Assembly: GCA_947629085.1 (NCBI GenBank)
Contig: CANRCM010000002.1
Location: forward strand, 1,208-65,207
Reading direction: 5' to 3'
Source of the DNA: an uncultured Clostridia bacterium
Lineage (GTDB): Bacteria > Bacillota > Clostridia > TANB77 > CAG-508
DNA length: 64,000 nucleotides
The notes beneath the pieces are model-generated. The model saw only the letters and a program-made list of their open reading frames with translations, ran no database searches and was not told the origin of the DNA. The translations under genes were made by a program, and so were the position numbers. Below are positions 2,966 through 42,589 of the stretch, one piece after another. Position 1 is the first letter of the stretch. Each line of letters starts with the position of its first letter.

Positions 2966-3946
2966 ATGAAATTAGAACAAAATGAACAACCACTTATTTT
3001 TTCTACAACTGAGATTTCTGATATTTTCTTCTCAGAATATTTGTCAGAATTACCTGGTGATTATCTAAAAATATATTTATATATAATATTCTTATCTAAA
3101 TATGGAAAAGATATTAAATTAACAGATTTATCAAAAAAATTAAATATCCCTCTAAAAGTTATTAATGATGGATTAAAATTTTTAGAAGAACGAAATTTGG
3201 TTACTAAAAAAACTACGGGATATATTATTACAAATTTACAAGAGTTTACTCTTCACAATTTATATACACCTAATTTAACACTTTCTAAAGAAAAAATAGA
3301 GCAAACTGCAAACAATAAATCTAAAGCAAAAGCTATTGAACATATTAATAATATGTATTTTCAAGGTATTATGGGACCTTCTTGGTATAATGATATTGAT
3401 TTATGGTTTAGAAAATATTGTTTTGATGAGCAAGTAATGATTGCTTTGTTTGATTATTGTTATAAACGTAGTGCTTTACATAGAAATTACATACAAACAG
3501 TTGCGGAAGCTTGGGCTTCAAATAATGTAAAAACATGGAATGATTTAGATTTATATTATCAAAAACAAGAAAATTTAAATAAAATAAAAAAATCAATTGC
3601 AAAAAAACTTGGAAAATATAATGGTCTTACTCAATATGAAGAAGCTTATATTGAAAATTGGATTTTAAATTTTGGTTATGATATGAATATTATTGAAATT
3701 GCTTTAAAAAGAACAACTTTTAAACAAAATCCTACTTTTGAATATATTAATAATATTATTACAGATTGGCATGATAGAAAATTAAAAACACCATCAGAGG
3801 TTAATGCTTTTCTTGAGCAACGTAAAAAACAAGAAAATGATACTAAAAACTTAAAATCCAAAGTTAATAAAGCTAATTATACTCAAAGGCAATATTCTAA
3901 TTTAGATTTTCTTTACGCAAATAATATAGAAAAGAAGGAGAATTAA
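2966..3946 (+). CDS. DnaD-domain replication initiation / membrane attachment protein (DnaB/DnaD-like primosomal component).
   Basis: C-terminal DnaD-like repeat (NWILNFGYDMNIIEIALKRTTFKQNPTFEYINNIITDWHDRKLKT). RBS GGAGAG. Its stop overlaps the start of the following dnaI gene (TAAATG). Confidence 0.65.
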   Translation: MKLEQNEQPLIFSTTEISDIFFSEYLSELPGDYLKIYLYIIFLSKYGKDIKLTDLSKKLNIPLKVINDGLKFLEERNLVTKKTTGYIITNLQEFTLHNLYTPNLTLSKEKIEQTANNKSKAKAIEHINNMYFQGIMGPSWYNDIDLWFRKYCFDEQVMIALFDYCYKRSALHRNYIQTVAEAWASNNVKTWNDLDLYYQKQENLNKIKKSIAKKLGKYNGLTQYEEAYIENWILNFGYDMNIIEIALKRTTFKQNPTFEYINNIITDWHDRKLKTPSEVNAFLEQRKKQENDTKNLKSKVNKANYTQRQYSNLDFLYANNIEKKEN

Positions 3947-4949
3947 ATGTCTAACGAATTTTTAAACTCATTATTAAAAGAATATGAACAAAAAAAATTA
4001 ACTGCAGAATTGAATCTGGAAAAAAGAAAAGAAACTCTATATAAAGATGTTCCAAGACTTCAAAAAATAGAAGATAATTTAAACAATTTCGCAATTATGA
4101 CCGCTAAAAACATTTTAAACAATTCTTCTTATCCTATTGATCAACTAGAGGATGAAGTAAATAAATTAAAACTAGAAAAATCAGAAATATTAAAAAATTT
4201 AAATTTACCAGATAATTATCTAGAACCAAATTATGATTGTAAAATTTGTAAAGATACTGGTTATATTAAATTAGATAATTATAAGACTTCAATGTGTAAT
4301 TGTTTAAAACAAAAATTATTAGAATGTTCTTTTAATAAATCAAATATGTATAATTTAGATAAGCAAAATTTTAATAATTTTAATGAAGATATTTTTTCGG
4401 ATGAAGTAGATTTATCCAAATGTAAATTAAATATTTCGCCTAGACAAAATATTTTAAATATAAAAAATAAATGTATAGAATTTATCGAAAATTTTGATAA
4501 TCCAAATCAAAAAAATCTACTTTTCACAGGGAAAACAGGTTTACGGTAAAACTTTTATGTCTAATTGTATAGCAGCTGAATTATTAAATAAAGGTAAAAC
4601 TGTTCTTTATCAAACAGCTCCTATATTGCTTGAAAGCGTAATAGATTATAAGTTTAATAAACATAATAGTATTTCAGAAAATATTTATAAATCAATATTA
4701 GATTGTGATTTGTTAATTATAGATGATTTAGGAACCGAAACCATAAATAGTATGAAGTTAAGTGAATTATTTACAATAATTAATACTAGAATTTTAAATT
4801 TAAATAATAAAATAACTAAAACTATAATCTCTACAAATTTAGATATTAATGATATTTTTAAACATTACGAAGAACGTATTGGCTCTAGAATTGCTGGATA
4901 TTACGATATTTATTATTTCTTAGGAAATGATCTGAGATTTAAAAAATAA
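3947..4949 (+). CDS. dnaI: Primosomal helicase loader DnaI (DnaC-like AAA+ ATPase), read as one gene split by a single extra C at 4544.
   Basis: N-terminal Cys cluster (CKICKDTGY...CNCLKQ) typical of the DnaI zinc domain. The Walker A motif is broken as FTGKTGLR* / VYGKTF. Deleting C4544 restores FTGKTGLGKTFMSNC. Confidence 0.7.
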
Positions 4950-7732: not shown

Positions 7733-8459
7733 TTATATTAACTTTTCTGCTAATTCCATTTGTTCTTTAGTTAAATTAAAATCTTGACCATTATTTTTTA
7801 TTAAATTATGTAATACTTCTATTGTTTTAGCATTATTAATGGTGTTTTCAATAGGTGCAATATTTTTTAATTGTTTTTCTATTTTACTATATTCTTTTTC
7901 CATTCCATTAAAATTTTTGGATTCAAAATACTTTTTCCAATTCGAAACATATTTATTAATATTATCTATAGCTTGATATTGGTTGTTAAAAGATTGTGTA
8001 ATATTACTTTCTAAATTATTTAAAATAATATTTTTACCTTGTTTTATTGTATTAGCAATACTGCTACTAATAGCACCCTCTTTTCTTACTTTTTCTACAA
8101 CATTATCAATTAAAATTGACATACTATCAATTAATCCTCCACTTTGTATTGCTTTTTGCATTTGCCCTACGCTTTCAAAGTTTCCTGTAAAAATTCCTAT
8201 TGCACTTTTTCCTAAGTCTATAGCATCACTTATAGTTTGTTTTATCCCGATCTTTCAGTCCATAATTAAATAAATTCTCTTTTAAACTAATTACTTCATT
8301 TTCCATAAAATCTGGTAATATTGCTCTCATACCTATATCTATTGCGGTGTTTATTGTTTTTCCTAATGTTGTCTCCAAAAAATTTTTTTGAGTTGTTTCA
8401 TTGACAATATTATTATTTTTTTCTATAACATTATTTTTTTCTAAATTTTCTATATTCAT
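7733..8459 (-). CDS. Hypothetical protein (~240 aa), read as one gene split by an extra base at 8249 (a C on the coding strand, before GGG).
   Basis: The ORFs 8226-8459 and 7733-8161 are contiguous in homology once the G at plus-strand 8249 is removed. The joined reading gives ...NYGLKDGIKQTISDAIDLGK... Confidence 0.45.
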
Positions 8460-8527
8460 TTTTACCTCTTTTCTTTTATTTATTTTTAATTGCCTTTTTA
8501 TAATTAATTTTACTTTTAAAAATAATT

Positions 8528-9697
8528 TTATTTTAATATTTTATTAAATATTTTTTTATACTTATTTTTATAAATTTGATTTTTTTTATGATAAAAAATT
8601 TTATAAATTTTAAAAGGTTTTTTAATAATATTTTTAATGACTAAATCACTAATTGAATTAAAAAAATATTTTTTTTCTATAATATATAATTGGGGTTTAT
8701 GATTTAAAATTTCTTTTTTATTTATTTTTAAATTTTTTATAAATTTATTAAAATCCATAAAGTCATTATTTATTATATATATTATTTTATCACTTGTGGT
8801 AATTAGTTCTTTAATTAAATATATGTTTTTGTTATATAAATTTAAATCTATATTAAATAAAATATAATCATATTTTTTTTCATTTTGTTTTAAAAAATTT
8901 TTTAAATTATTTTTTATTTCTTTTTTATTTATTTTAATTAAAAATTTTTTTAAATTATTTATTAAAATTGATTCTTTATTAATTATTTTTTTATTTTTTT
9001 TGTTGTTTATATTATTTTTATTATTCAAATTAATTAATAATATTTTTTTATTTTTTTCTATTAAATAATTAATTAATAAATTATTTATATGTTTTTGTTC
9101 ATTTTCATAAATAATTATTTTTTTGTTTGTTTTTATATTAATATTTTTTGTGAATTTTTTATCTTTTTGATTTTTTTTCTTTATTTTTTTTAATTTTTCT
9201 ATATAATTTTTAATTTTATTTTCATTTTTATCCTTATTTTTTCTTTTATTTTTATCTTGTTTTTCTTTTTTATTTATTTTTTTTATATTATGTTTTATAG
9301 TACTTTTTATTTGTTTATTTTTCAAAATATTTTTGTTTTCTATAAATAAATTTATTATTTTAATTTTATTTATTTTATTAATATAATAAATATTTTTTAT
9401 TTTTAATTTTTTTAATTTATTTTCTTTTCCTATATTTTCTTTTTGAAGAAAAAAAATAATATTAATTTTTTTATTAATTATTTTTATTTTTTTTATTAAA
9501 TCTTCTATACTAATTTCTCCAGGTAATTTTTCATCTAATAAAATTAAATCTATATTTTTTTCTCTTTTTAATATTTCTAAAATTGCCTCTCTGTATTGTA
9601 CTTTTTTTATATTTATCTGAATATTTATTAAATTTTCTATTTTTTCTATTTTTTTTAATATTTTTTTATTTTCAATTGCTAATATTACCTTTTTCAT
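8528..9697 (-). CDS. Lys/Asn/Ile-rich low-complexity protein with a possible receiver-like N-terminal fold.
   Basis: 389 aa. The N-terminus (KVILAIENKK...LILLDEKLPGEISIEDLIKKIKI) resembles a CheY-like REC domain. The rest is poly-K/N/I. It overlaps the upstream VirB4 gene by 26 nt. Confidence 0.45.
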   Translation of the reverse strand: MKKVILAIENKKILKKIEKIENLINIQINIKKVQYREAILEILKREKNIDLILLDEKLPGEISIEDLIKKIKIINKKINIIFFLQKENIGKENKLKKLKIKNIYYINKINKIKIINLFIENKNILKNKQIKSTIKHNIKKINKKEKQDKNKRKNKDKNENKIKNYIEKLKKIKKKNQKDKKFTKNINIKTNKKIIIYENEQKHINNLLINYLIEKNKKILLINLNNKNNINNKKNKKIINKESILINNLKKFLIKINKKEIKNNLKNFLKQNEKKYDYILFNIDLNLYNKNIYLIKELITTSDKIIYIINNDFMDFNKFIKNLKINKKEILNHKPQLYIIEKKYFFNSISDLVIKNIIKKPFKIYKIFYHKKNQIYKNKYKKIFNKILK

Positions 9698-27230: not shown

Positions 27231-28070
27231 ATGGCAAAAATGACAGGATTAGGAAAAGGGTTAGATGCTTTATTTGGACCAGCTCCAGAAGAAGAACAAA
27301 TTAAAGAAAATGACACTTTAAAAACATTAAAAATTACAGAAGTAGAACCTAATAGAGATCAACCAAGAAAAAGATTTGAACAATCGGCTTTAGAAGAATT
27401 ATCAGATTCTATAAAAGAATATGGATTGATTCAACCTATAGTTGTTACTAAAAAAGATGGATATTATAGCATAATAGCAGGAGAAAGAAGATGGAGGGCT
27501 TCTAAATTAGCAGGATTAAAAGAAATACCTGCTATTATAAGAGAAGATGATGAAAAAACAAATTCTGAAATATCTTTAATAGAAAATATGCAAAGAGAAG
27601 ACTTAAATCCAGTGGAAAAGGCAATGGGAATAAAGAAACTAATGGATAGTTATGGAATGTCTCAAGAAGTGGTATCTAAAAAACTAGGAAAAGGAAGAAG
27701 TACAATAGCAAACTGGGTAAGAGTTTTAAATCTAGAACCAAGAGTTTTAGAAATGGCAAAAGAGGGTAAAATAACAGAAGGACATTGTAAAGCATTACTT
27801 GCAATTACAGATCCAGAAAAACAATATCAAACAGCTATACATATGCTAGAGAGGGGACAAACTGTAAGACAAATAGAGAAAAAAGCTAAAGTAAAAGAGA
27901 CAAAAGAAGAAGAAAAAAGAAAACATGTGTTATATAAAAATATAGAAGATACATTTCAAGGATTTTTCGGTTCAAAAGTTAGATTAGATGCTGGAAAAAG
28001 ACGAGGAAAAATAATTATTGAATATACATCAAATGATGATTTAGAAAGAATATTAGGATTAATTAAATAA
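27231..28070 (+). CDS. spo0J: Chromosome partitioning protein ParB/Spo0J.
   Basis: ParB box (GLIQPIVV...AGERRWRAS) plus HTH. Only one ParB paralog is present; no noc. Confidence 0.9.
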   Translation: MAKMTGLGKGLDALFGPAPEEEQIKENDTLKTLKITEVEPNRDQPRKRFEQSALEELSDSIKEYGLIQPIVVTKKDGYYSIIAGERRWRASKLAGLKEIPAIIREDDEKTNSEISLIENMQREDLNPVEKAMGIKKLMDSYGMSQEVVSKKLGKGRSTIANWVRVLNLEPRVLEMAKEGKITEGHCKALLAITDPEKQYQTAIHMLERGQTVRQIEKKAKVKETKEEEKRKHVLYKNIEDTFQGFFGSKVRLDAGKRRGKIIIEYTSNDDLERILGLIK

Positions 28071-28157: not shown

Positions 28158-28249
<92 letters not shown>

Positions 28250-28306
28250 AACAATAAAAAGTTAGATATTAAAAGATATAAAATATCTAACTTTTATTTA
28301 TAAAAT

Positions 28307-28396
28307 GGAGATGTACCCAAGTGGTGAAGGGGACTGTTTGCTAAACAGTTAGGTCGTGAAAACGGCGCGGAGGTTCGAACCCTCTCATCTCCGCCA
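28307..28396 (+). tRNA. tRNA-Ser (anticodon GCT).
   Basis: Anticodon loop TTGCTAA, long variable arm, T-loop GGTTCGAACCC, CCA. A terminator hairpin follows at 28402-28448. Confidence 0.85.
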
Positions 28397-28607: not shown

Positions 28608-28689
28608 TTCATTAATTTTCTAAAAAATGACAAAAAAGTTGAAAAAAACTAAAAAAAGTAGTATAATTAAAAAGAATAGAGGTAAAAGT

Positions 28690-29073
28690 ATGAAAAAAAC
28701 AATAGAAACAAGTTTTAAAATTATAGCAATAGTTTTTATTTTAATAACAATTTTTTGTTTTTTTAGTAATAAATATGTGTGCGCGGCAAGTGATGGTAAA
28801 TTTAATCCTGATGATTATAAAGTTGATACTTCTTTAGACGGAGATACAAAAATTAAAGAAATAGGAAATAAAATAATTGGACCTGTTTCATTAATAGGTA
28901 GCTTAGTTTCAGTTATGGCAATAATAATTATTGGTATCAAATATATGTTAGGAAGTGTAGAAGAAAAAGCACAATATAAAGAAACATTAGGTCCATATTT
29001 TATAGGCGCTGTACTAGTATTTGGAATAATAACAGTTTTATCTATTGTACGAACAATTGCTTCATCATTATAG
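28690..29073 (+). CDS. VirB2/TrbC-like pilin-family small membrane protein, paralog 1.
   Basis: RBS GAGG. Signal peptide, a variable acidic segment, then the conserved core GIKYMLGSVEEKAQYKETLGPYFIGAVLVFG flanked by two TM helices. Confidence 0.6.
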   Translation: MKKTIETSFKIIAIVFILITIFCFFSNKYVCAASDGKFNPDDYKVDTSLDGDTKIKEIGNKIIGPVSLIGSLVSVMAIIIIGIKYMLGSVEEKAQYKETLGPYFIGAVLVFGIITVLSIVRTIASSL

Positions 29074-29090
29074 AAAAGAAGGTGAGAAAA

Positions 29091-29462
29091 ATGCAAAATA
29101 AAACAATCAAATTAATAGCAATTATAAGTTTATTTATTATAATATGTATTTTTCCAATAAAAGTTTTTTCTAGCTGGGTTGATGATGCAAAAGGATTTTT
29201 AGATGCTGCAGATGATACAGCAGTAGTTGATCAAGAGCAACTTCATAAAACATCAAATGATGTTTACAATATATTAACATCAATAGGAATGATAGTTTCT
29301 GTTGTTGTAGGTATAGTATTAGGAATTATTTATATGATGTCAAGTGCAATAGATAAGGCAAAAGTAAAAGAGTCATTAATTCCATATTTAATAGGAAGTT
29401 TAATAATTTTCGGTGCATTTGGAATATGGAAATTAATTATTAATACATTTAGTGGATTGTAA
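29091..29462 (+). CDS. VirB2/TrbC-like pilin-family small membrane protein, paralog 2 (most divergent).
   Basis: Core IIYMMSSAIDKAKVKESLIPYLIGSLIIFG. Confidence 0.55.
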   Translation: MQNKTIKLIAIISLFIIICIFPIKVFSSWVDDAKGFLDAADDTAVVDQEQLHKTSNDVYNILTSIGMIVSVVVGIVLGIIYMMSSAIDKAKVKESLIPYLIGSLIIFGAFGIWKLIINTFSGL

Positions 29463-29475
29463 TAGGAGAATAAAT

Positions 29476-29808
29476 ATGAAAAAATATATAAAAATATTTA
29501 TTTTATTAATATTAATTATAAGTTTTTTAATGACTACTGTATATGGATTTAAATTAGAAGACTTAGATGGAAGTGGAGCTACAACAGGAAATATAAAAAC
29601 TACTGGAAATGTGATCTTGAAATATTTATCTATTATAGCTTCAGGCATATCGATAATTGCAATTATTGCATTAGGAATAAAATATATGATGGGAAGTATA
29701 GAAGAAAAAGCACAATACAAAAAGACATTATTACCATATTTTATTGGTGCAGTATTTGTATTTGGAGCAACTGCAGTAGCTCAAGTAATATATAAAATGT
29801 TTAATTAG
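29476..29808 (+). CDS. VirB2/TrbC-like pilin-family small membrane protein, paralog 3.
   Basis: RBS AGGAGA. Core GIKYMMGSIEEKAQYKKTLLPYFIGAVFVFG. Confidence 0.6.
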   Translation: MKKYIKIFILLILIISFLMTTVYGFKLEDLDGSGATTGNIKTTGNVILKYLSIIASGISIIAIIALGIKYMMGSIEEKAQYKKTLLPYFIGAVFVFGATAVAQVIYKMFN

Positions 29809-29872
29809 TTTTTAAAGTTTTCTCACACAACGGGAAATTAATATAAAAGAAAAAGTAAAAGGAGGAATAGAT

Positions 29873-30241
29873 ATGAAAAAAATCCAAACAATATCAAAAA
29901 TACTTACAATAGCATTATTAACTATTATGTTGATAAGTACTTTCTCAACAGTATTTGGAGCAGTTGCGTGGAATCCAGACAAATGGAACGGAACCTCAGA
30001 AAGTATAAAAGCTGATCAAGTAGAAGATTTTATGGAAGGTGTAATAAATATAGTTTCTATAGTTGGATCAGCAGCAGCAATTATTTTTATAATTGTATTA
30101 GGTGTTAAATACATGATGGGAAGTGCAGAAGAAAAAGCAGATTACAAGAAAACATTATTACCATATTTTATTGGTGCAGTAATGGTTTTTGGTGCATCAA
30201 TATTAACAAAATTTATATATACTTTAATGAAAAATTCATAA
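29873..30241 (+). CDS. VirB2/TrbC-like pilin-family small membrane protein, paralog 4.
   Basis: RBS AAAGGAGG. Core GVKYMMGSAEEKADYKKTLLPYFIGAVMVFG. Confidence 0.6.
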   Translation: MKKIQTISKILTIALLTIMLISTFSTVFGAVAWNPDKWNGTSESIKADQVEDFMEGVINIVSIVGSAAAIIFIIVLGVKYMMGSAEEKADYKKTLLPYFIGAVMVFGASILTKFIYTLMKNS

Positions 30242-30350
30242 TATTAATTAAACAAAAAATCAAAACAAAAAAGGACGGGGAGAAATACCCTGTTCTCTTT
30301 TTTGTTTTAAAATACTTTTAATCATGCTTAAAGATATTAATTAATAATCT

Positions 30351-30450: not shown

Positions 30451-30493
30451 ATATTAAGTAGAAATGGGTTTAAGTTCAAGGAGGGATAATACT

Positions 30494-30871
30494 ATGCAAA
30501 CTTATAATATACCAAGAAATTATAAAGGAGAAGGTAGGATTCTCTATATATTTTCAACTAAGGCAATTATATATACAGCTATAGGAATAGGTATTGGTTT
30601 GATATTTTATTTTATATTTAATTTAATAGGACTAACAGTTTTAGGAATAATTATTTCTGTTATTTTAGGAGCAATTGGATTTGCAATAGCAACATTTAAA
30701 GTACCAGAATTAAAAAACTTTGAAATAACAAAAAAAACAGGTGGAGAAAACATAGATAATGTAATAAAAAGATGGTATATGTTCAAAAAAAAGAAAAACA
30801 AAATATATGTTTATGCAGAAAAAGATAATAAATATTTAAAACCAAAAAAGGAGGAAACAAAAGATGAATGA
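30494..30871 (+). CDS. VirB3/PrgI-like two-TM protein.
   Basis: RBS AAGGAGGG. Two TM helices. Sits directly upstream of VirB4, the usual VirB3 position in Gram-positive T4SS loci. Confidence 0.6.
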   Translation: MQTYNIPRNYKGEGRILYIFSTKAIIYTAIGIGIGLIFYFIFNLIGLTVLGIIISVILGAIGFAIATFKVPELKNFEITKKTGGENIDNVIKRWYMFKKKKNKIYVYAEKDNKYLKPKKEETKDE

Positions 30872-33800
30872 TCAATCTATTAATATATTAACATATATTT
30901 TAATTTTTATGATTGTAATATTAGTAGTACTTTCTTTAATTTTTATTGTACTAAAAATCAAAGAAAATAATGACAAAAAAGATAAAAAACAAAAAATCAA
31001 AAAAAATGATAAGGCAACAAAAAATAAAAAAGCAGAAGAAGTAACAAAAGAATATAGTAAAGAATCTATATTTTCATTTATGGAATTTGACAAAATTGAA
31101 GACAACATGATTATAAAAAAAGAGATGAAAAATTATTTAATGGTAATTGAATGTCAAGGAATAAATTATGATTTGATGTCTGGCGTAGAAAAAACAAGTG
31201 TAGAACAAGGATTTTTACAATTCTTAAATACATTAAGACATCCTATACAAATTTATACACAAACAAGAACAGTAAATTTAGGAAATAGTATAGTTACATA
31301 TAAAGATAAATTAAAAGAAATTCAAGAAAATTTAGTAAAAACAGAGATGGATTATAGACAACGAGTAAATTCAGGAAAATATTCTCAAGAAGAACTTGAA
31401 AAATTTTATCTAGAAGTAGTAAAACAAAGAAATTTATATGAATACGGAATAGATATTATTAAAAACACAGAGCAAATGAGTTTTAATAAAAACATATTAA
31501 CAAAGCAATATTATATAATTATATCTTACTATCCAGAAGATATGGAAAATAGAGATTTTGATAAAGAAGAAATTAAAAATCTAGCTTTTTCTGAACTATA
31601 TACAAAAGCACAATCAATTATAAGTGCATTATTCGTATGCGGAGTAAATGGAAGAATATTAGATTCTACACAATTAGCAGAATTATTATATGTAGCATAT
31701 AACAGAGATGAATCTGAGGTATATGATTTAAATAAGGCACTAAGGTCAGGATATGAAGAACTATATTCTACAGCGCCTGATGTTTTAGATAAAAAAATGC
31801 AAGAATTAGACAAGAAAATAGAAGAAGAAGCAACTAAAAAAGCAAATGATGCGGTATTTATGGCAACAGAAGAAAACAAAAAAGAAAAAGAAGTAAGAGA
31901 AAAAGAAAGAAAAATTAACAAATTAATTGATGATATGGCCAAAATGATAATCGAAGAAAATGAAAGTTTTTTAGGAACAGAAGTAACAGAGAAAGCAAAA
32001 GAAATAGTAGATAGGGAAGATACAAAAGAAAAATCAAAGAAAAAAGGAGGTAATACGGATGAGAAAAAAGCAACAACAACAAGAAGAACTAGAAAAACAG
32101 TATAATACAGCGAATGAAGAAGAACAAATAAATATATTGAGAAAGAAAAGTATAAAAGAATTGATTGCTCCATCAGGTATAGATGCTTCCAATATTGATC
32201 ATTTAGAAATAATATCTAATACTAAAAGATATGCAAGAAGCTTTTTTGTATCATCATTGCCAAGAATGTGTACGTTTCCAGAATTATTTAGGGACATGTA
32301 TCTTTTTGGAGATATAAATACATCTGTATATATAACACCAATAAAAGAAGAGAGATCTCAAAATGAATTAAATAGAGTAATTAATGAATTAGAGACAGAA
32401 AGAATTGTAGCAGCAGATAAAGGAAATATAAATAGAGAAAGTATCATATCACAAAAAAGATTTGAGGCAGAGGAATTAAGAGATGAAATAGCAGCAGGAT
32501 TTAATAAATTATATGAAGCATCTGTAGTGGCAACTTTATTTTCATATAATTTAGAAGAGTTAGATAGATATACAAAATTATTAGCTAGCGAAATGTCTAA
32601 AACTTTAGTAGGAATAAAAACCGCATGGGGAATACAAGAAGAAGCTTTTCAATCTAATTTACCATTAATGAATAATAAAATAGATAAAAGACATACCTTT
32701 GATAGAAATTCAATGGGAACAGTATTTCCTTTTACAACATCAGAAATCGGACATCCTACAGGAGTACCACTAGGATTTAATAAACAAACAGGTACACCAA
32801 TATTATTTGATAATTTTCATAGTTCACTTACAAATTATAACATGGTTATATTTGCAAAGTCAGGTGCTGGTAAATCAGTTACTATGAAAACTTTAGTATC
32901 AAGATCTTCTGTACTTATGGGAATAGAAAGTTTAGCTTTAGATGCGGAAGGAGAATATAGAATAGTTGCTGAAAGTTTAGGAGGAATTAATGTTGTAATA
33001 AGCCCTACATCAAAAACAGTTATTAATGTTTTTGATATAGAAGTAGAGAATATTAAAGATGAGATTACAGGAAGAGAAAGAACTGTTCTAAACGTAGAAA
33101 ATAAAGTAGAAGATGTTACGCAAGCCTTACTTACAATGGCAAGAGGAAGTACAAAAAGTGAAGAAGTAAATGAGCTTACAAAACAAATAATAGCAGAATC
33201 AGTTGCAGAAGAATATGCAGCTAGAGGAATAACAAGTGATCCAAAAAGTTTATATGAATCATCACAAAACACAATAAATAATGGAAATATGTTTTCTAAA
33301 GAAAAGAAAAAAATGCCAACAATAGGAAGTTGGTATAGAAGAATTCAAAAGAAAGCACAAGACAACAAAAATAATGATTACCAATATCATTATAGTTATT
33401 TATTAAAAGTTATGAAGCAATACATAAGAGAATATGATGGGCAAATGGCATATTTTGATGGGCAATCTACATTTGAACTATTAGATGGATCGCCATTCAT
33501 TAATATAGATATATCTCAGTTAGAGGAAAGATTTGCAAGACCATTAGCACAGCAAATATTACTTTCTTGGATTTGGGAAAAATTTGTAAAGAAGAATAGT
33601 GAAGATAGAAAAAAGGCTAAGAAGAAAAGAGTTCTTGTAGATGAAGCTTGGATGTTACTTCCATATCAAGAAGCAGTAGATTTCTTAAATAAAATGGCAA
33701 GACGTGCTAGAAAAAGAAATGTTTCTCTTGCTATTATTTCTCAAAGATTTCAAGATTTCTATGAAAAACAAGAAGCACAAGCAGTTTTAACATCATCAGA

Positions 33801-34023
33801 TACAAAGTTATTCTTAGCACAAGATAAATCAGAAATACAATACTTAAAAGAAGTATTTAAACTTTCTGAGGGAGAGGCAAATTTTTTGATTACATGTCAA
33901 AAAGGAGAAGGTCTGTTTAAAGTTGGATCAGATACAGCAATTCTAAAGATAATGCCAACTAAAAAGGAATTTGAATTTGTAGAAACAAATTTAAATCAAT
34001 TAGCAAAACAAAGAGGAATGTAA
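30864..34023 (+). CDS. VirB4-like conjugative ATPase (copy C), read as one ~1050-aa gene split by an extra C at 32056. It has an N-terminal TM anchor plus K-rich extension, the VirB4 N-domain, then the ATPase body.
   Basis: Deleting C32056 joins ...KSKKKGGN to RMRKKQQQQEE... in frame, mirroring the contiguous arrangement in copy B. Walker A (FAKSGAGKS), Walker B (VLVDEAWMLL) and IISQRFQDF are present. Confidence 0.7.
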
Positions 34024-34041: not shown

Positions 34042-37000
34042 ATGAAAATTTTTACTAACAAAAAGATATGGCAAAAAATAATAATATTAATATTAATTAT
34101 ATTATTTTTTCAAATCTTTATTCCTAAACCATCACATGCAATTCCAGGAGACGTTTTATTAGAACCAGTTACTAATTTATTTGCAAATCTTGGAGATGGC
34201 ATTATGAATATTATGCAAAAAACTTTTATGGGCATGGATACATCAGGAGCATGGATTGAAAAAGGGAATGCATCATTTTGGCGAACGATTGCTATTATAG
34301 GGGCTGCTATACTAGCTGCTACAATAGCTGTTGCGGCAATAGTGCTTTCAGGAGGAGTAGGATTGGCTGTTTTTGCCTCAGCAGCAGGAGCAGTACTAAA
34401 AATTGCACGGAGTTGCAACTATAGTGTATTTTGCAGCAAGTGTAACCCATTTTCGGCGAAAAAGGATTTTATGTGCCTGATTATGAATTAACACCTCAAA
34501 GCATTTTTCAAAATGAGATATTAGCTTTTGATGTTAACTTTTTTAATCCAAAAGCAGATAAAATAACAAAAACAGTTGTAAAAGATAGAGATAGTGACGT
34601 AACGTTTAATGTTGATAATGATTTTAAAGGTGATTATAAATCAAATATAATAAATTTAAGGGGTAATGATAAAATTCCAGATATGAATGTTAGTTACGAA
34701 AATATTGATTTAGCTTTATCTAAGGGATTGGGGTATAATGGAGTTTCAAATAGTACAAACAATCCTAACATTTCAATAGAAGACATTGCAAAAGAATGTT
34801 ATAAAAATATGACGTTAGAAACTGGAGAGACTCCAGAATTAACGTATTCTGAAGGTGATAGACAAACAATTAGTGACACATACACTCTTAAGTCAAATGG
34901 AATTTATGAAGGAGAATATAAAATAACAGAAACAGTATTAATAAAAGCTAAAAATTATAGAGGAAGAATTGTTTTAACTAAAACATTTTACAATGGATGG
35001 ATTAGTTCAACGGATAGAAAAAGTGATAAAGTTGTAGTAAATACAACAACAGATGTATCTTCAGCTAAAGAATTACAACCGGTAATAGCATCATGGTATA
35101 AAGCTTTTAGAAATATAGCTCTTGTCGCTTTATTATCTGTATTAGTATATGTAGGTATAAGAATTACACTATCTAGTACTGCAGGAGATAAGGCGAAATA
35201 TAAACAAATGCTAGTTGATTGGACTGTAGCAATATGTTTGATTTTTTTGATGCACTACATAATGTCTTTTGCAGTTACTATTAATGAAAAAATAATAAAA
35301 ACAATTTCTTCAATTACGGTTTCTAATTCTGTATCAAAACAAGAAAACGAAGTTACAAAAGGTAATGGTAAAACTTTTGCTAATTATCAAAGTAAAAGTA
35401 CTAAAGGATCAGATGAGACGAAAAGCAAATTAAACAATAATGCGGGAATCAAGTCAGGAGAAGAAGCGAAAGGTGACGGGCTAGAGGTATTTATAATAAA
35501 TGATAAAGAAGATGTAAAGGCCGCTTGGAAAACATTAGTGGGAGAAAAAGGTGAAGATAGTAAATTTTTTAAATATTTTGATGGTGACTCAGAAGATAAT
35601 GTAAATATTTTATCATTACCAGCTCATGATTTTATGACACAAGCAAGGATGTATGGTCAAAAAGTAAATGTAGATAATGAATCGGATGACCAGACTGAAT
35701 CAGATAATAGCAGTCAAACATCAGTTGCTAGAGCTGGATATAACATTATATATGTTGTTTTGGTAATATTTACAGTAATATTCTGTTTTACATATCTAAA
35801 GAGGGTAATATATATGGCATTCTTAACAATTATTGCACCTTTAGTTGCTATAACATATCCTATAGATAAAATGAATGATGGAAAAGCACAAGCTTTTGAT
35901 TTGTGGTTAAAAGAATATATATTTAACTTATTAATACAACCAATGCATTTAATATTGTATATAGTTTTAGTAGGTTCTGCAATGAAATTTGCGGCTCATA
36001 ACATATTTTATGCAGTTATAGCATTAGGATTTATAGCATCAGCTGAAAAATTATTACGTAGATTCTTCGGATTTGAAAAAGCAAATACACCAGGAATGTT
36101 TGCAGGACCAGCAGGAACAGCATTAATGATGTCAGGTTTAAGTAAACTAATGCATAGACCTCCTCAAGGAAAATTAGGATCAGGAGGAAGAAATGGTAAC
36201 TCTAATGATTCTGAAGAAAAAGTAAAAGCACCAAAGATGAATAGAAATGTTGATGACACAGCTGGATTGTTTGGTAAAGAAACTGAAGAAAAAGAATTAC
36301 CTGTAGGAGGAAAAGAAACAAGCAATAAGAAAGAAATAAAAAATAAAGAAGAAAAAAGCAAATTTAAATTATCAAAAGGACAGCAAGAAGGAATAGATGA
36401 TTTAAAAGCACAAGGACTTAAACCAGGAGATCGAGAATTTGACCAAGCATTAATGAACATGGGTATTGATCCAAAAGCATACAAAAATTCTATGTTAAAT
36501 AATGGAGGAACAAATAAAACTCCATCAGGAAAAACACCTAATGGCACAAAGACACCAATTCCAAGTAATATGAAACCAAAATTAAGAACAAGAATAAAGA
36601 AAAAATTAAGAAGACCTACGAAAGCGTTAGCAAGTGGATTAAGAGCATATGGAAGAAAGAAAAATAAAAAATATTATGGAAAAACAAATGGACAAATAGC
36701 AGCGTTAATGCTTAAGAAGGGAGTAGGAAAAGGATTAGGATTAGGTGCAGAAGCAGCAACTACAACTTTAGCAGCATCAGCAGCAGGACTAGCATCTATC
36801 ACAAGTGGAGATCCACAAAAGGCACTTCAAAACATGGCTGTAGCAGGAGCTTCTGGGTATGCTCTAGGAAAAGGAATAGCAGGAAAAATTGAAGGCTCAG
36901 ATAATCAAGAAATATTTGATGCTATGAAGGAAGGATACTATGGAGATGACTATAAAGAAGTACAGCAAAAACAATTTGAAAAACAATTTGCAAAAGATGA

Positions 37001-37358
37001 AGAAAATCTAAAGAAGATAGAGAAAACTCTAAAATTAGAAAGAAAACAAGCTGAAAAAGTTGCTAAAGATGTTGCAAAAAATACACAAATAGATGGAATT
37101 GAAAATGTAGATCAAGCATTAGCAATGTATCAAATGCAACAAGAAGGAAAATATAGCGATAAAGAGATAGGATATGCAGCAAGTTATAATGAAAAAATAT
37201 TAGAAGGAAGAAATACTAAATACATGAAAGACAGAGAAGAACATAGAAATAGTTTAAAAGAATCTTTTATAAGAAACGGAGATAGTGAACATATGGCAGA
37301 AATAAAATCACAAAATGTATTCAAGGCTATGGATAGATATAATGAATTCAAAAAATAA
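34042..37358 (+). CDS. VirB6/TcpH/ConG-like polytopic membrane protein, read as one ~1100-aa gene split by two extra Cs (34408 and 34454).
   Basis: Removing both Cs gives a continuous ...AVLKIAGVATIVYFAASVTHFGEKGFYVPDYELTPQ. At least 6 TM helices lie mid-protein. The C-terminal half is a long hydrophilic K/G-rich tail. Confidence 0.55.
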
Positions 37359-37375: not shown

Positions 37376-38308
37376 ATGCATAACTTTTTAAGATATATTA
37401 GGCAAAATAGGAAAAAAATTATAAAAGGGGTATTGATTATAGCCTTCTTCATTATAATGTTAAATTTATTGAATTATTTTATAAAAGATGAAGGAAGTAA
37501 TGATAGTTCATCTAGTGATATTTATAATACTTCAAATGGAACAATAGTATCAGATAAATCAGCTGTATCTGGAGGTAAAATATCAACTAGAGAATTAGAG
37601 AAGGTTAGCAATCAAATTAATGACTTTGTTGAATTATGCAACAGCAATAAAGTAGAAGATGCATATAATCTAATTTCAGATGCATGTAAAGAAGCGTTAT
37701 ATCCTAATATAGAATATTTTACAAATAACTATTACGACATATTATTTAATGGAAAAAATAGAGAATATACAATAGAAAACTGGACAGGAGATACATATAT
37801 AGTTAAGTTTACTGAAGACTTGTTAGCGACAGGAAAATCAACAAAGGAAAATAGCTATTCTGATTATATTACAATAGTAGATGAAAATGGAGAAAAAAAG
37901 TTAAATATTAATAAATTTATAGGAAAAGAAGAAATAAATAAAAAAGGAGAAAATGATAACATAAAAGCAGAAGTATTATCAAGATCTAAATATTTTGATT
38001 ATGAAGTATATGAAATAAAAGTTACAAACGACACTGATAGTCCAATATTATTAGACCAATTATTAGATTCAGAAACAATATACTTAAAAGATAATAAAGG
38101 AAATAGACATTATTCATATAATAATGAAATAGTAAAAGAAGACTTAAAAATTTTCTCTGGATTTTCAAAAACAATAAAAATAAAATTTGATAATCCTTAT
38201 ATTACAGGTAGAAAGATAGCTTCACTTAATTTTTCAGAAGCAGTATTAGAATACGATGAAAATAATTATGGTTCAATTTCAACAACTAAAGTTTCTGTAA
38301 ATTTATAA
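37376..38308 (+). CDS. N-terminally membrane-anchored protein, possibly VirB8/TcpC-like.
   Basis: One TM helix (IIKGVLIIAFFIIMLNLL), then a ~270-aa soluble domain. The call is positional only. Confidence 0.3.
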   Translation: MHNFLRYIRQNRKKIIKGVLIIAFFIIMLNLLNYFIKDEGSNDSSSSDIYNTSNGTIVSDKSAVSGGKISTRELEKVSNQINDFVELCNSNKVEDAYNLISDACKEALYPNIEYFTNNYYDILFNGKNREYTIENWTGDTYIVKFTEDLLATGKSTKENSYSDYITIVDENGEKKLNINKFIGKEEINKKGENDNIKAEVLSRSKYFDYEVYEIKVTNDTDSPILLDQLLDSETIYLKDNKGNRHYSYNNEIVKEDLKIFSGFSKTIKIKFDNPYITGRKIASLNFSEAVLEYDENNYGSISTTKVSVNL

Positions 38309-38581: not shown

Positions 38582-41500
38582 ATGCGAAAAATAAAATTTA
38601 AAAATAAAATAAAATATCAATTTAATATTTTGATGAAAAAATTAGTATCAATATTAGTAATAATAACAAGTATATTTTTCTATTTACCAGTTATTAGTTT
38701 TGCTGCTGATTCTAATTCAGATAATGATAAAAAATCTCCAGCACTAGTTCCAGTAGCAGCAGATTCTATTATTTCTAAATATGTAGATACTAATTTTAGT
38801 GGAGGTAGTGAATCTAATAGTTCCAATAGTTCTTCAAGAATTATTACTGATAATAAAGAAAAAGGAAATGGGTGGGATAGTATAACTACAGTTAAATATC
38901 CTAATGGAACAGAAAGGACATATAGGAATTATAAACAGTTTCCAAATAACGAAGAAAATGATTATTATAATTATCCATATTGGGATGGTAAGATTCGTGA
39001 TTCAGGATGTGGACCAACTTCTATAGCAATTATATTAAGTGGTTATGGATATGACTATAATCCAAGAGACGTAGTACAAAAAATGAGTAGACTAGGAATT
39101 ACATATTCAAATTATGACTATCTTGTGAAGACATTGAAAAGCTTTAATATAGATTGTGAACTAAAAAGTTGGACAGACAATTCGGAAAAAGAAATAAAAA
39201 AGAACTTTGAAGAAGGTAGACCTATGATAGTAGGAGTGCCAAACCATTTTGTAACTTATGTAGGCTTAGATAAAGATGAAAAATTAATAATTTCTGATCC
39301 TGGTAAAAATGATGGACAACATGGTATATATGGAGCCACAATACCAGAACTAAAGAGAAACCAATCAACTCATCAATATATACTTATAAAATCAAATGGA
39401 ACTGCTACATCTGATAGCTCAAATTCATCTAGTAAAAACAGTTCTAATAATGAGTCAGATTCTTCATCATCAAAAACCGATTCAAATAATAATACAAGTG
39501 GTTCAGGTAAAGTTATAAGTACATCAAATTATAATTCAACAGGTGGATATTCTGGAGTATATGAGAGTAGAACTACAGGTAAAAAATTTAAAGAATATAA
39601 GCAAGATTCTTCATGGGCAATTTCTACATTTCCAAAAGTAGCTTGGACACAAGAATGTGGTAAAATATCAGCATTAATTATAGGAAGTGGTTATACAAAT
39701 AAGGCTACTTATAAAGATTTATATGAAAATATATTAGAAGAAGGAAAACAAAATCCAAATGTTCATTCGATAATAAATACATATACAAATACAAATTCTG
39801 ATTTTCAATCAATGGTAAGCATAGAAACTTTAAAGGATGCTCTATCAGAAGGATGTGTTGCATCAATACATGTAAGTGGATATCCTAATACTCCAACTCA
39901 CTTTTTGTCAATACTAGATATTGACGAAACAAAAACAAAGATATATTTATCAGACCCATGTGGAAAAAGCAGCAGTTATGACGGTTGGAAAGATATTTCG
40001 ATAGTAAGTAGTTTAGGAACTCATGAAATATGTTTTGTTTCAAGTGATGGAAAAGTTGTTGATTATAGTGGAGATGGAGATTCAAGTGATTCTTCAGATG
40101 GTTCATCAGAATCCAATATAGATATGAGTAAAAACATAGTACCTAATGGACGTGGCGGATATAAAATAAATATAAAACTAAATAAAGAAATTGATGATAT
40201 GCTAGCGAAATTGAAGAAAACAGATTTTAAAATGGAATCATACTTAAGTAGCAAAAATCAGAAAAAATACTTAAAAAATATGATAAAAGCAGCAATAGTA
40301 ACTCAATATCCTGATTTAAGAAGTGCTCAAGAAATTGAAAATGATGATGAAGTACAAGGAGAAACTCAAGGATGTATAAGGATTAAAAGATATCCAGATG
40401 GAGAAACTAAAGCTTTTGCGGGAATAGATAATAATGATGAAGGAATATATCTAGCATATAAACCATATGAAGAATTTTATAAGATGATAAGTGATGGTGA
40501 CAAAAATGCATTAAAGTATTTTTCTATGGATTCTTCAAACAATATAGTAGTTGCTGGTTGGGAAACTATGGAGGTTGAAATATCTGGTCCAACTCAAACA
40601 AATGCGAGTGAAGTGGGTAATGCACCAGATAGTTATAAAGAAGAATATACTCCTATAAGTCAACCATATTCAAAATTGACAGAAAAGAAAGTATCATACT
40701 TAAATCAAGTTTCTAACTATACTATGCCATTTAGTTTAATGTGGTCTTTGTTAGTATATGGCCATGATGAAGATTTTGTAAATGACTTAGCTAAATTAGT
40801 TATAAGTACAGATATTATCATAGGATGTTATGATGCAACAGATGTTAGAGTAACAAGTCATGATTTTACATATAGTAAAATAGGAGAAGCAAAAATAGAA
40901 GCAAGATTATCAAATCCAACTAGTGAAACTCCACATGCATCAGATACAAAGCAATATACAACTGTGCAAGTAGAATACAAATTCAAAGTAACAGAAACGG
41001 ATACATTAAAAACGGATAATCCATCTTTAAATGTTATATATGCAGATACATGGACAGCTGTATATAAAAGAGATTTTAAAGTAAAATCTGAAACAAAAAA
41101 ATCAGATGAACAAACAAGCAATCATGGAGATAAAACAACGGAAACAAATTATTATACAATAAATGGTGAAAAATATAGTGGAGATAGAAAGCCAGATGAT
41201 GAAACTTTAACACAAAAAATTGATGAAACAGTAGAAAAAGAATCTGAAGATTTATTAAATAAAGAATTAGAAGAATTAAGAGAATCAGTTGAAGGAGCAA
41301 ATAGGCAAATCCAATATAAATATCAAGCTTTAAGCAAAAAAATAAATGAAATTTATAGTAGAGAGAGTAATGCAGATCTTAATAAATTTTTAAATATTAA
41401 AGATGTACAAAGTTATATCATAAATATGATTATAGACCAATCTTCTAATACAATAATAGAGAGTACATTTAATGTAGAAAATGCTTTAATGTTAAAATAT

Positions 41501-42589
41501 GCTAAAAGTGTTAATTCGAACGATCATGTAAGTATATTAAACAAAGCAGTACAAGCGGTTCAATTTTTACAACAAGATGAAGAATTATATAATGAAATAA
41601 CAAAAAATAATAAGGATTTTACAAAGGCGCAAGTATATAATACTAATATAACAAGTGTGCAAATCACAGAAGAGAAGAAAAAAACAAATAATAAAGAAAC
41701 AATAAATGAAACAACAACTACATCACAAGTAGAAGAAGTTCCTACTTCAGAAGATAATGTTAGATTTAAAAAAGATAAAAATGCTGATGAAAATAGTTTT
41801 GTAAAATTATTAGCATATAGTAAAAGTGCAAATGGAAATTTACAAATAGTAAATGCTTGGTTTTTTGACTCATTGGAAGATACAGAAGCAATAGCAGATT
41901 TAGAAGATTTAATGAAATATTTATTCCAATGTGTATATAAGCAAAATTATGGAATTAAGAAAGAAGATATAGAAAAACTAAAAGATTTATTTGATCCAGA
42001 CAAATTTCAAAGTATAGGATCAAAATCTAGTAGTAGTAAAAGTGTTAGAACTAGTGATATGTTATGGGAATTTATAAAGGCATGGGAATCACATGAAGGA
42101 CTAAGTGAAGATGGAAAAAAATATAGAATAGGATTAGTATTAGGTAATAGAACCGTAGGATACGGATTTGATATAGACGCTAATGGATATGAAGATACTT
42201 TAAAAAAAGCAGGATATTCTACAAACGTAGGAGATTATATTGATGTAGATTTTATTGATAATTTAAGTAAAAAAGAATTATCTGAAAAAAGGCAAGCGAT
42301 TATTAACCAATTTAAAAACTGCAATCCACCATTAAATGAACAGCAAATAGATGCACTAACAGCTATTGCATATCAATATGGACCATATTCTTGGAAGGCA
42401 TCTTTTATAGATGCATATAGTAAATATGGAAATACAGATCAATTAAGATACAATGTCTATACAAATGGTAGTAATCATTGGCAAATATTTGTCAAAGGTC
42501 CAGAAAGCAATGGAAGGCCTGCAGCAAACTGGAAATTATTCCATGAAGGTAAATATACTAATGGAAGAGGACAGGAAATAACTTTATAA
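38582..42589 (+). CDS. Giant secreted cell-wall hydrolase (TcpG/PrgK/CwlT analog). Two tandem papain-fold Cys/His peptidase-like domains plus a C-terminal GH24 (T4-lysozyme-like) domain.
   Basis: Signal/TM N-terminus. Domain 1: DSGCGPTSIAI...NHFVTYVGLD...SDPG. Domain 2: TQECGKISALI...THFLSILDID...SDPCG. C-terminus: WESHEGLSEDGKKYRIGLVLGNRTVGYGFDID, carrying the Glu/Asp/Thr lysozyme triad. Confidence 0.6.
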   Translation: MRKIKFKNKIKYQFNILMKKLVSILVIITSIFFYLPVISFAADSNSDNDKKSPALVPVAADSIISKYVDTNFSGGSESNSSNSSSRIITDNKEKGNGWDSITTVKYPNGTERTYRNYKQFPNNEENDYYNYPYWDGKIRDSGCGPTSIAIILSGYGYDYNPRDVVQKMSRLGITYSNYDYLVKTLKSFNIDCELKSWTDNSEKEIKKNFEEGRPMIVGVPNHFVTYVGLDKDEKLIISDPGKNDGQHGIYGATIPELKRNQSTHQYILIKSNGTATSDSSNSSSKNSSNNESDSSSSKTDSNNNTSGSGKVISTSNYNSTGGYSGVYESRTTGKKFKEYKQDSSWAISTFPKVAWTQECGKISALIIGSGYTNKATYKDLYENILEEGKQNPNVHSIINTYTNTNSDFQSMVSIETLKDALSEGCVASIHVSGYPNTPTHFLSILDIDETKTKIYLSDPCGKSSSYDGWKDISIVSSLGTHEICFVSSDGKVVDYSGDGDSSDSSDGSSESNIDMSKNIVPNGRGGYKINIKLNKEIDDMLAKLKKTDFKMESYLSSKNQKKYLKNMIKAAIVTQYPDLRSAQEIENDDEVQGETQGCIRIKRYPDGETKAFAGIDNNDEGIYLAYKPYEEFYKMISDGDKNALKYFSMDSSNNIVVAGWETMEVEISGPTQTNASEVGNAPDSYKEEYTPISQPYSKLTEKKVSYLNQVSNYTMPFSLMWSLLVYGHDEDFVNDLAKLVISTDIIIGCYDATDVRVTSHDFTYSKIGEAKIEARLSNPTSETPHASDTKQYTTVQVEYKFKVTETDTLKTDNPSLNVIYADTWTAVYKRDFKVKSETKKSDEQTSNHGDKTTETNYYTINGEKYSGDRKPDDETLTQKIDETVEKESEDLLNKELEELRESVEGANRQIQYKYQALSKKINEIYSRESNADLNKFLNIKDVQSYIINMIIDQSSNTIIESTFNVENALMLKYAKSVNSNDHVSILNKAVQAVQFLQQDEELYNEITKNNKDFTKAQVYNTNITSVQITEEKKKTNNKETINETTTTSQVEEVPTSEDNVRFKKDKNADENSFVKLLAYSKSANGNLQIVNAWFFDSLEDTEAIADLEDLMKYLFQCVYKQNYGIKKEDIEKLKDLFDPDKFQSIGSKSSSSKSVRTSDMLWEFIKAWESHEGLSEDGKKYRIGLVLGNRTVGYGFDIDANGYEDTLKKAGYSTNVGDYIDVDFIDNLSKKELSEKRQAIINQFKNCNPPLNEQQIDALTAIAYQYGPYSWKASFIDAYSKYGNTDQLRYNVYTNGSNHWQIFVKGPESNGRPAANWKLFHEGKYTNGRGQEITL

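Follow-up and report, generated by a model that had tools for sequence, protein, structure and literature searches.

Type IV secretion systems (T4SSs) of Gram-positive bacteria have been described as devoid of VirB2 pilins, with Patescibacteria as the single exception according to a review of December 2025 (PMC12857230). Outside that group no VirB2 homologs are attributed to Gram-positive T4SSs (PMC12102498 and PMC12857230), and only Patescibacteria are credited among them with the potential for conjugative-type pili (PMC12857230). Their T4SS is chromosomal, often near dnaA and mostly without a relaxase, and carries VirB2 arrays of 2-11 genes with a mean identity of 25%; in Southlakia epibionticum the pilin array is essential (PMC12102498; PMC12857230). 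Here we analysed 64 kb of DNA from an uncultured Clostridia bacterium (hereafter the window), in which four tandem genes encode VirB2-like pilins. We consider it probable that these genes form a separately transcribed pilin operon belonging to a vertically inherited, origin-proximal chromosomal T4SS, which is carried by a large gut clade of uncultured, spore-forming Clostridia.

The closest parallel to this array is the pilin array of the Patescibacteria T4SS. Both belong to a monoderm T4SS of the PrgI/VirB3, TrsD-like, VirB4 and VirB6 type with tandem divergent VirB2-like pilins, and both are chromosomal and carried by uncultured hosts with small genomes. The position next to the origin, which is frequent in Patescibacteria, and the lack of a relaxase, usual there, are found here too (the latter for relaxase families within the 64-kb window). 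In contrast to Patescibacteria, the present bacterium belongs to the Bacillota and forms spores, to judge from its SpoIIR and GerM-like genes. Since the nearest named relatives of its VirB4 are Firmicutes (C. botulinum plasmids at 43% identity, Heliorestis at 36%, and Peptostreptococcaceae) and not Patescibacteria, the locus looks like a case of parallel domestication rather than a member of the Patescibacteria VirB4 clade.

Plasmids and integrative and conjugative elements (ICEs) of clostridia, such as C. botulinum p12/29, also resemble the locus in having a small pilin-like open reading frame (ORF), a PrgI-size ORF, TraC-like and VirB4 proteins, a VirB6-like protein with a pilin-like segment and a C39-family peptidase. 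They differ in that they are mobile and hold one pilin below threshold, whereas the present lineage has 3-6 above-threshold copies at a fixed chromosomal site. The outgroups that we recovered at 36-43% VirB4 identity, namely a metagenomic ICE-like locus with a coupling protein (T4CP) and an integrase (L088), a Heliorestis locus, and plasmids of C. botulinum and C. beijerinckii, share the gene order and have one pilin-like ORF of 18-25 bits, below the Pfam threshold. For TrsB of the lactococcal plasmid pUC11B, a Pfam VirB2-family match has been listed without comment (PMC10221548). Tandem diverged VirB2-family genes within one T4SS, thought to vary an exposed surface, are also found in Bartonella (Trw) and in Anaplasma/Ehrlichia (as cited in PMC12102498). 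Those are diderm pathogens that interact with host cells; here, the classes and their order are kept across many species, without signs of recent duplication or conversion.

We found no description of this pilin array in Clostridia in the literature. The published conserved pilin of the uncultured gut order TANB77 was considered and rejected as a candidate, because it belongs to a Tad-type (type IVc) pilus cluster (PMC11680825). That cluster and its "pilin 938" also form a lineage-wide pilin gene array in uncultured gut Clostridia of reduced genome size, appearing at NCBI as "Clostridium sp. CAG:...", but the machinery is unrelated, with a TadA/CpaF ATPase, a TadB/C platform and type IV pilins of 143-236 aa (PMC11680825).

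Four pilins and their probable transcription unit

The array consists of the following genes, assigned to the two classes (A and B) that emerged from clustering of the orthologs.

28690-29073, + strand: pilin 1, 127 aa; class A, first-position type; PF18895 38.7 bits, PF04956 31.4 bits
29091-29462, + strand: pilin 2, 123 aa; class B, deeply diverged type; PF18895 29.0 bits, PF04956 17.4 bits (below cut-off)
29476-29808, + strand: pilin 3, 110 aa; class A, near pilin 4, missing in three-gene arrays; PF04956 37.3 bits, PF18895 30.5 bits
29873-30241, + strand: pilin 4, 122 aa; class A, last-position type; PF18895 41.6 bits, PF04956 40.4 bits

By scanning the proteins against Pfam, we found that all four score above the gathering cut-off of PF18895 (T4SS_pilin, 26.6 bits), with E = 1e-6 to 1e-10, and that pilins 1, 3 and 4 only score above that of PF04956 (TrbC/VirB2, 27.9 bits). 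A first, sequence-only reading of the window had proposed four tandem VirB2/TrbC-like pilin paralogs, and the curated profiles bear this out, with the four ORFs at the coordinates listed. The Pfam, PHROGs and NCBIfam scans matched no holin, phage or bacteriocin-immunity family; PHROGs gave no relevant holin or phage family, and the only NCBIfam match of the pilins, below threshold, was to a Mycoplasma ICE "pilin-like conjugal transfer protein".

Alignment of the four paralogs revealed homology far beyond chance, with 19 invariant columns and, at the DNA level, a 166-nt repeat of 66-75% identity among genes 1, 3 and 4. Pilin 1 is nevertheless only 31%, 45% and 38% identical to pilins 2, 3 and 4 over the whole protein, so that the near-identical core announced by the sequence-only reading is confined to a 25-residue hairpin tip, G(I/V)KYMxGSxEEKAxYKxTLxPYFIG, which lies between two hydrophobic helices. 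Within this tip, pilin 4 is ~88% identical to pilin 3, ~76% to pilin 1 and ~56% to pilin 2; the second copy is the most diverged, as had been noticed, both here and in its 31% identity to pilin 1.

Each pilin starts with a K-rich N-terminus and a hydrophobic stretch that ends in small residues at -3 and -1; an acidic segment and two more hydrophobic helices follow. The sequence pattern places the putative cleavage sites at VCA↓A, VFS↓S, VYG↓F and VFG↓A in pilins 1-4, and in an alignment of 276 homologs V (51%) and A (65%) are the commonest residues in the -3 and -1 columns. On this pattern, the precursors may be cleaved by signal peptidase I. The segment that follows would be the mature N-terminus; it is acidic and variable, as had been claimed, but measures 19-29 aa rather than ~30 and is not extreme in its acidity (net charge -1 to -5, Asp+Glu 16-25%). 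An AlphaFold model of pilin 4 built from 47 homologs (mean predicted local distance difference test score, pLDDT, 81) contains helices at residues 2-30, 47-82 and 85-121. Hydropathy segments agree with this model on a two-helix hairpin having a basic tip (K79, K88, K92 and K93), and in both the conserved core sits between two hydrophobic helices, in line with the topology first suggested. A putative signal peptide, a two-helix hydrophobic hairpin and a basic tip are shared with VirB2 of Agrobacterium, TrbC of RP4 and TraA of F, as is the gene position just before virB3- and virB4-type genes. No similarity to solved pilin structures is detectable by sequence or Foldseek, and the host has no outer membrane. 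Also, we identified no partner cyclase or acetylase in the window.

Then, we looked at the borders of the array, where two signals stand.

28639-28667, + strand: promoter-like site TTGAAA-17-TATAAT, 11/12 matches, just 5' of pilin 1 (consensus match only)
30272-30306, + strand: intrinsic-terminator-like hairpin and T-run closing the pilin unit; fold -19.4 kcal/mol, z = -4.0

Because a promoter-like site lies 5' and a terminator-like hairpin 3', the array would form its own transcription unit, apart from the machinery genes. Promoter-like matches are frequent by chance in the AT-rich region upstream of the pilins; the position of this one fits a start codon at 28690. The mechanical ORF of pilin 1 begins at 28627, and we preferred the corrected start at 28690 because of the -10 hexamer (28662-28667) and the lengths of orthologs. 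Of 78 related loci, 55 have a comparable hairpin and T-run behind the last pilin, versus 11 of 210 random segments; the stem sequences differ among loci. Finally, Shine-Dalgarno-like motifs are found 7-8 nt before each of the four ATGs (AGAGG, AAGGTGA, AGGAG and, the strongest, AAGGAGG for pilins 1-4), which agrees with the earlier statement that every gene has its own ribosome-binding site.

Machinery, chromosomal setting and inheritance

Downstream of the array lies a cluster of T4SS genes, all on the same strand.

30464-30871, + strand: PrgI/VirB3-like small membrane protein; PF12666 21.1 bits, below cut-off
30864-32105, + strand: 413-aa membrane-anchored protein, TraC-like; PF26593 on orthologs (precomputed), none in the local Pfam scan of the window copy
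32059-34023, + strand: VirB4-family ATPase; PF19044, DUF87, AAA_10
34042-34491, + strand: 149-aa cluster protein, fast-evolving (median identity 38%); no family match in Pfam or NCBIfam
34473-37358, + strand: 961-aa VirB6-like polytopic protein; weak NCBIfam matches to the MMCAP2_0566, Mbov_0396 and pLS20_p028 conjugation membrane-protein families
37376-38308, + strand: 310-aa conserved cluster protein, orthologs in 72 loci (median identity 36%); no family match in Pfam or NCBIfam
38582-42589, + strand: 1335-aa putative cell-wall hydrolase with a VirB1-type role; C39-like (PF13529 44.4 bits, PF03412 27.4 bits) and lysozyme-like (PF00959 20.1 bits, below cut-off)
42683-44014, + strand: 443-aa conserved cluster protein, orthologs in 59 loci (median identity 32%); no Pfam match

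The PrgI-like and VirB4 genes are located 0.2-1.8 kb downstream of the pilins, an arrangement kept in the related loci examined. The PrgI-like ortholog holds its position in all loci, and its Heliorestis counterpart reaches 37.9 bits with PF12666. The VirB4 protein gave sub-threshold NCBIfam matches to the CD1110-family and Mbov_0397-family VirB4 proteins. In the VirB6-like protein, residues 199-265 form a weak pilin-like hairpin (PF18895 22.4 bits; hhalign E = 7e-4 over residues 206-264), which holds a GDKAKYKQML motif resembling the pilin tip. Weak matches to this segment recur across most related loci as well as in the homolog from the C. botulinum plasmid, the sister lineage and the outgroups, and the hairpin might serve as an internal nucleus on which pilins stack. 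At the position of the hydrolase, relatives encode C39, M23 or NlpC/P60 hydrolases.

The same NCBIfam scan returned a very weak, sub-threshold match of VirB4 to CedD (26 bits). The archaeal Ced and Ted systems combine a chromosomal VirB4-family ATPase, a VirB6-like protein and small VirB2-like pilins without a relaxase, and serve to import DNA, not to export it; the CedD match is the sole link to them here. Directly after the T4SS cluster (44061-46482, + strand) we noted an ABC ATPase, 66-75% identical in 24 related loci, and a large ABC-2-like membrane protein.

The array begins at 28690, ~10 kb from dnaA (17511-18875) and shortly after parB (27231-28070). The - strand carries dnaA, dnaN, recF and gyrB, and the + strand rnpA, yidC, jag, mnmE, mnmG, rsmG, parA and parB; GC skew changes sign near 18 kb of the window. 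GC content is ~25% throughout, that of the T4SS cluster being the same as that of its flanks, and housekeeping and sporulation genes lie beyond the cluster. Among the latter are a GerM-like (Germane) gene at 53871-54416 and a SpoIIR gene at 60736-61401. These two genes point to a spore-forming Firmicute, and therefore the T4SS must span an envelope of the Gram-positive type. Family scans covering every window ORF of at least 100 aa revealed no family of relaxases, integrases or excisionases. Between parB and the array is one further feature.

28158-28396, + strand: two tRNA-Ser genes

In the window these tRNA genes occupy the junction at which some relatives carry an insertion. Three loci, L003, L004 and L005, have an identical last-position pilin (P0094); directly upstream of the array, L003 and L004 contain an inserted segment that includes genes for a tyrosine integrase and an HTH_17 protein, whereas L005 lacks it. 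Other elements seem to integrate preferentially at this upstream junction, which is not a sign that the T4SS is mobile. In relatives without the parB neighbourhood, an EssC-like ATPase and YkuD-domain proteins are encoded upstream of the array; the ATPase in L005 (151-4734) is a 1527-aa FtsK/SpoIIIE protein with an FHA domain.

To define the distribution of the locus, one genome per species was scanned for VirB4, which gave at least 466 confirmed matches, and the best 80 were fetched as loci. These best 80 are at least 81% identical in VirB4 and all come from metagenome-assembled genomes (MAGs) of gut origin, from humans, mice, rabbits, chickens and sheep. Among them are "Clostridium sp. CAG:343" and "CAG:575", as well as a closed chromosome of 1.70 Mb. 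Across 85 loci VirB4 is 81-94% identical. Homologs of pilin 4 occur solely in metagenomes and in MAGs named "Clostridia bacterium". Using a pilin profile, we found an array upstream of VirB4 in essentially every fetched locus whose upstream region is present: 42 arrays have three genes, 34 have four and one has six. Copy number does vary among relatives, a point that the sequence-only reading had left to be checked, but its statement that a four-paralog array is unusual needs qualifying, since three or four genes are the rule in ~80 related genomes and arrays are also described for Patescibacteria, Bartonella and Anaplasma (PMC12102498), although none has been reported for Bacillota.

Clustering of the pilins separated two deep classes, and the class of copy 2 stands at position 2 in 69 of 76 arrays of three or four genes. 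We also typed each gene by the window copy that it matched best. The most frequent patterns were 1-2-4 (31 loci), 1-2-3-4 (20 loci) and 1-2-3-3 (7 loci), with small margins between types 3 and 4; first-position orthologs from other loci matched pilin 1 best. The coexistence of 1-2-4 and 1-2-3-4 patterns, together with these small margins, suggests that the last pilin gene was duplicated at a later stage to give the fourth. We rejected recent gene conversion or duplication among the copies, since no long identical DNA tract exists between the window copies (the longest near-identical one is 19 nt) and the classes are older than the species sampled. A sister lineage (L093, VirB4 65% identical) already has three pilin genes. 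In that locus a gene of the TraX family, to which the F-pilin acetylase belongs, lies ~1.6 kb upstream of the array (3571-4389); we saw no TraX gene in the window.

Next, we compared evolutionary rates across one set of loci. Relative to the window proteins, median identity is 84% for VirB4 and likewise 84% for parA, parB and mnmG, 60% for the PrgI-like protein, 56% for the TraC-like protein, 41-43% for the four pilins, and 32-38% for the 149-aa, VirB6-like, 310-aa and 443-aa proteins. Among positional orthologs of the pilins, mean pairwise identity is 17-23% in the mature N-segment versus 53-83% in the hairpin tip, the last-position tip reaching 83%. VirB4 identity correlates with parB identity (rho 0.61), parB is the immediate upstream neighbour of the array in 35 of 62 loci, and on a 1.58-Mb contig the order mnmE-mnmG-rsmG-parA-parB, four pilins, PrgI-like, TraC-like, VirB4 is the same. 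Since VirB4 covaries with parB, parB often adjoins the array and VirB4 is as conserved as housekeeping genes, these data fit a vertical, housekeeping-like inheritance of the locus, although the loci had been chosen as the best VirB4 matches.

What the pilins may build

The four pilins are most likely non-redundant subunits of one T4SS filament or conduit. Because one class-B and two or three class-A subunits keep their identity and order across species, they may have distinct structural roles (major, minor or initiator). The functions first offered for the array were exposed-epitope diversification, recipient or host specificity, and stoichiometric pilus components. Best supported among these is a set of stable, non-redundant subunits with fast-evolving exposed N-termini; an interchangeable antigenic cassette fits less well, given the kept class order and the lack of recent conversion.

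In such a system, the precursors would be inserted via Sec/YidC and cut by signal peptidase I after V-x-(A/G/S), as read from their sequences, leaving in the membrane a helical hairpin of 86-96 aa whose two ends lie outside the cell and whose Lys-rich tip lies inside. If Gram-negative VirB systems are a guide, VirB4 would extract the subunits and stack them on the VirB6-like platform; roles of VirB4 and VirB6 in pilin recruitment are established T4SS biology (PMC12857230). The pilin-like hairpin of the platform might conceivably seed assembly. The hydrolase would open the peptidoglycan, and the product would be a wall-spanning conduit or an extracellular pilus, in which the conserved tip KYMxGSxEEKAxYKK would be a packing or lumen-facing part and the hypervariable acidic N-termini the exposed surface. 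As for its origin, the system probably derives from a clostridial conjugative element with one pilin gene and was apparently domesticated, as happened in Patescibacteria.

Several observations weigh against this reading. A filament is so far only predicted, from the genes of uncultured organisms. Structure prediction helped in part: it gave a three-helix model of pilin 4, but Foldseek found no significant match to it in the PDB, a bare helical hairpin being uninformative in that comparison, and a profile search of PDB sequences retrieved no pilin and only a designed coiled coil. As all envelope parts of the system evolve fast, the fast evolution of the pilins alone is no proof of surface exposure. 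The 80 loci, being the best VirB4 matches, are biased towards close relatives, and copy numbers from 3 to 6 imply some birth-and-death. Finally, a relaxase could lie outside the window, and a T4CP-like gene is present 27 kb from the array, on the other side of oriC, so that conjugation-like transfer of DNA or protein is possible.

That the array is a surface-variation cassette, in which interchangeable major pilins are expressed singly or as mixtures to escape immunity or phages, or to match different partner cells, as proposed for Bartonella trwL and Anaplasma virB2, is a possibility that we regard as unlikely. The hypervariable mature N-segment (17-23%) next to a conserved core, pilins that evolve twice as fast as VirB4, and copy numbers of 3-6 would all suit it, and the same reading has been put forward for other arrays (PMC12102498). 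However, order 1-2-(3)-4 and class identity are kept across ~80 species, paralogs within the genome are old (31-45% identity) and show no sign of conversion, and the array has a single promoter-like site and a single terminator, with no invertible or phase-variable element seen. We give somewhat less credence still to the pilins acting without a pilus, inside an envelope-spanning channel or as membrane assembly factors, with no extracellular filament. Classical Gram-positive T4SSs are indeed not known for conjugative pili. Pilins are needed even in pilus-less Gram-negative systems (PMC12857230), and the single weak pilin-like genes of ordinary clostridial plasmid and ICE T4SSs, the VirB2-family match of TrsB (PMC10221548) and the pilin-like hairpin in the VirB6-like protein all point that way. 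Yet the amplification to 3-6 copies, the strong signals, a terminator included, that set the array apart as a unit, and the hypervariable outward N-termini suit an abundant exposed polymer better than a channel part of low copy number.

It is very improbable that the locus is an ordinary conjugation module, that is an ICE inserted at the tRNA-Ser genes with pilins for mating-pair formation, and we rejected ICE identity on the combined grounds of no relaxase or integrase in the window and a fixed chromosomal synteny in many species. The array does begin just past two tRNA-Ser genes, its nearest outside relatives are plasmid-borne or have a T4CP and an integrase as neighbours, and the window holds a T4CP-like gene. 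In contrast, none of the mobility families sought (excisionase included) appeared in the window ORFs scanned, the chromosomal neighbours are the same in distant relatives, VirB4 is as conserved as parA, parB and mnmG and covaries with parB, GC content equals that of the flanks, and the integrase seen in L003 and L004 is part of a distinct insertion not present in L005.

An above-threshold VirB2-family array in true Bacillota, kept with its machine in several hundred gut species, runs against the current textbook-level statement on Gram-positive T4SSs, and the single cryptic pilin gene of ordinary clostridial plasmid and ICE systems bears on the origin of Patescibacteria pilins. Should the array build a filament, abundant gut bacteria that are still uncultured would display a major surface structure that evolves fast, with a bearing on contact between cells, phage attachment and host immune recognition. 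With orthologs at hand from hundreds of species, the question of a Gram-positive T4SS pilus is approachable. A bolder proposal, which we hold only as a speculative one and think rather doubtful, is that this clade (genomes of ~1.6-1.7 Mb, 25% GC) captured a conjugation machine independently of Patescibacteria, fixed it beside the origin, multiplied the pilin gene and depends on a T4SS pilus for attachment to, and exchange of material with, partner cells, either other gut bacteria or the host. If true, no bona fide Firmicutes before these would have had a VirB2-type pilus and a lifestyle dependent on partners, and this dependence might explain their resistance to cultivation.

A fifth pilin and other neighbouring genes

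The T4CP-like gene lies at the other end of the window, followed by a fifth pilin gene.

1-1268 (off the window start), + strand: T4CP-like ORF; PF12696 30.7 bits, PF10412 25.4 bits; frame open to base 3
1322-1654, + strand: fifth T4SS_pilin paralog, 110 aa, TTG start; PF18895 28.5 bits, above cut-off
1644-2543, + strand: 299-aa protein; no Pfam match

In two related loci, L090 and L091, this triad is found upstream of dnaD/dnaI-like genes and gyrA, with T4CP-like orthologs of 423-466 aa in the same place and 291-aa orthologs of the 299-aa protein in the same position; this protein always comes next after the fifth pilin. The fifth pilin has 5441 homologs, the top 120 at 75-92% identity, and is ~19% identical to pilin 1. 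Its family placement comes from Pfam alone, as comparison with the array profile by hhalign was not significant (E = 0.08). Since it is far more conserved (75-92%) than the array pilins (~42%), the fifth pilin is suggested to have a different, tightly constrained role.

On the - strand between gyrA and gyrB (7733-12169), four genes of 15-18% GC were also noted, whose products include very Lys/Asn-rich proteins. A similar gene set is found after gyrA in L091, not in L090. Inside this insertion, one gene (9672-11420, - strand) encodes a second VirB4/TraG-P-loop-like ATPase of 582 aa.

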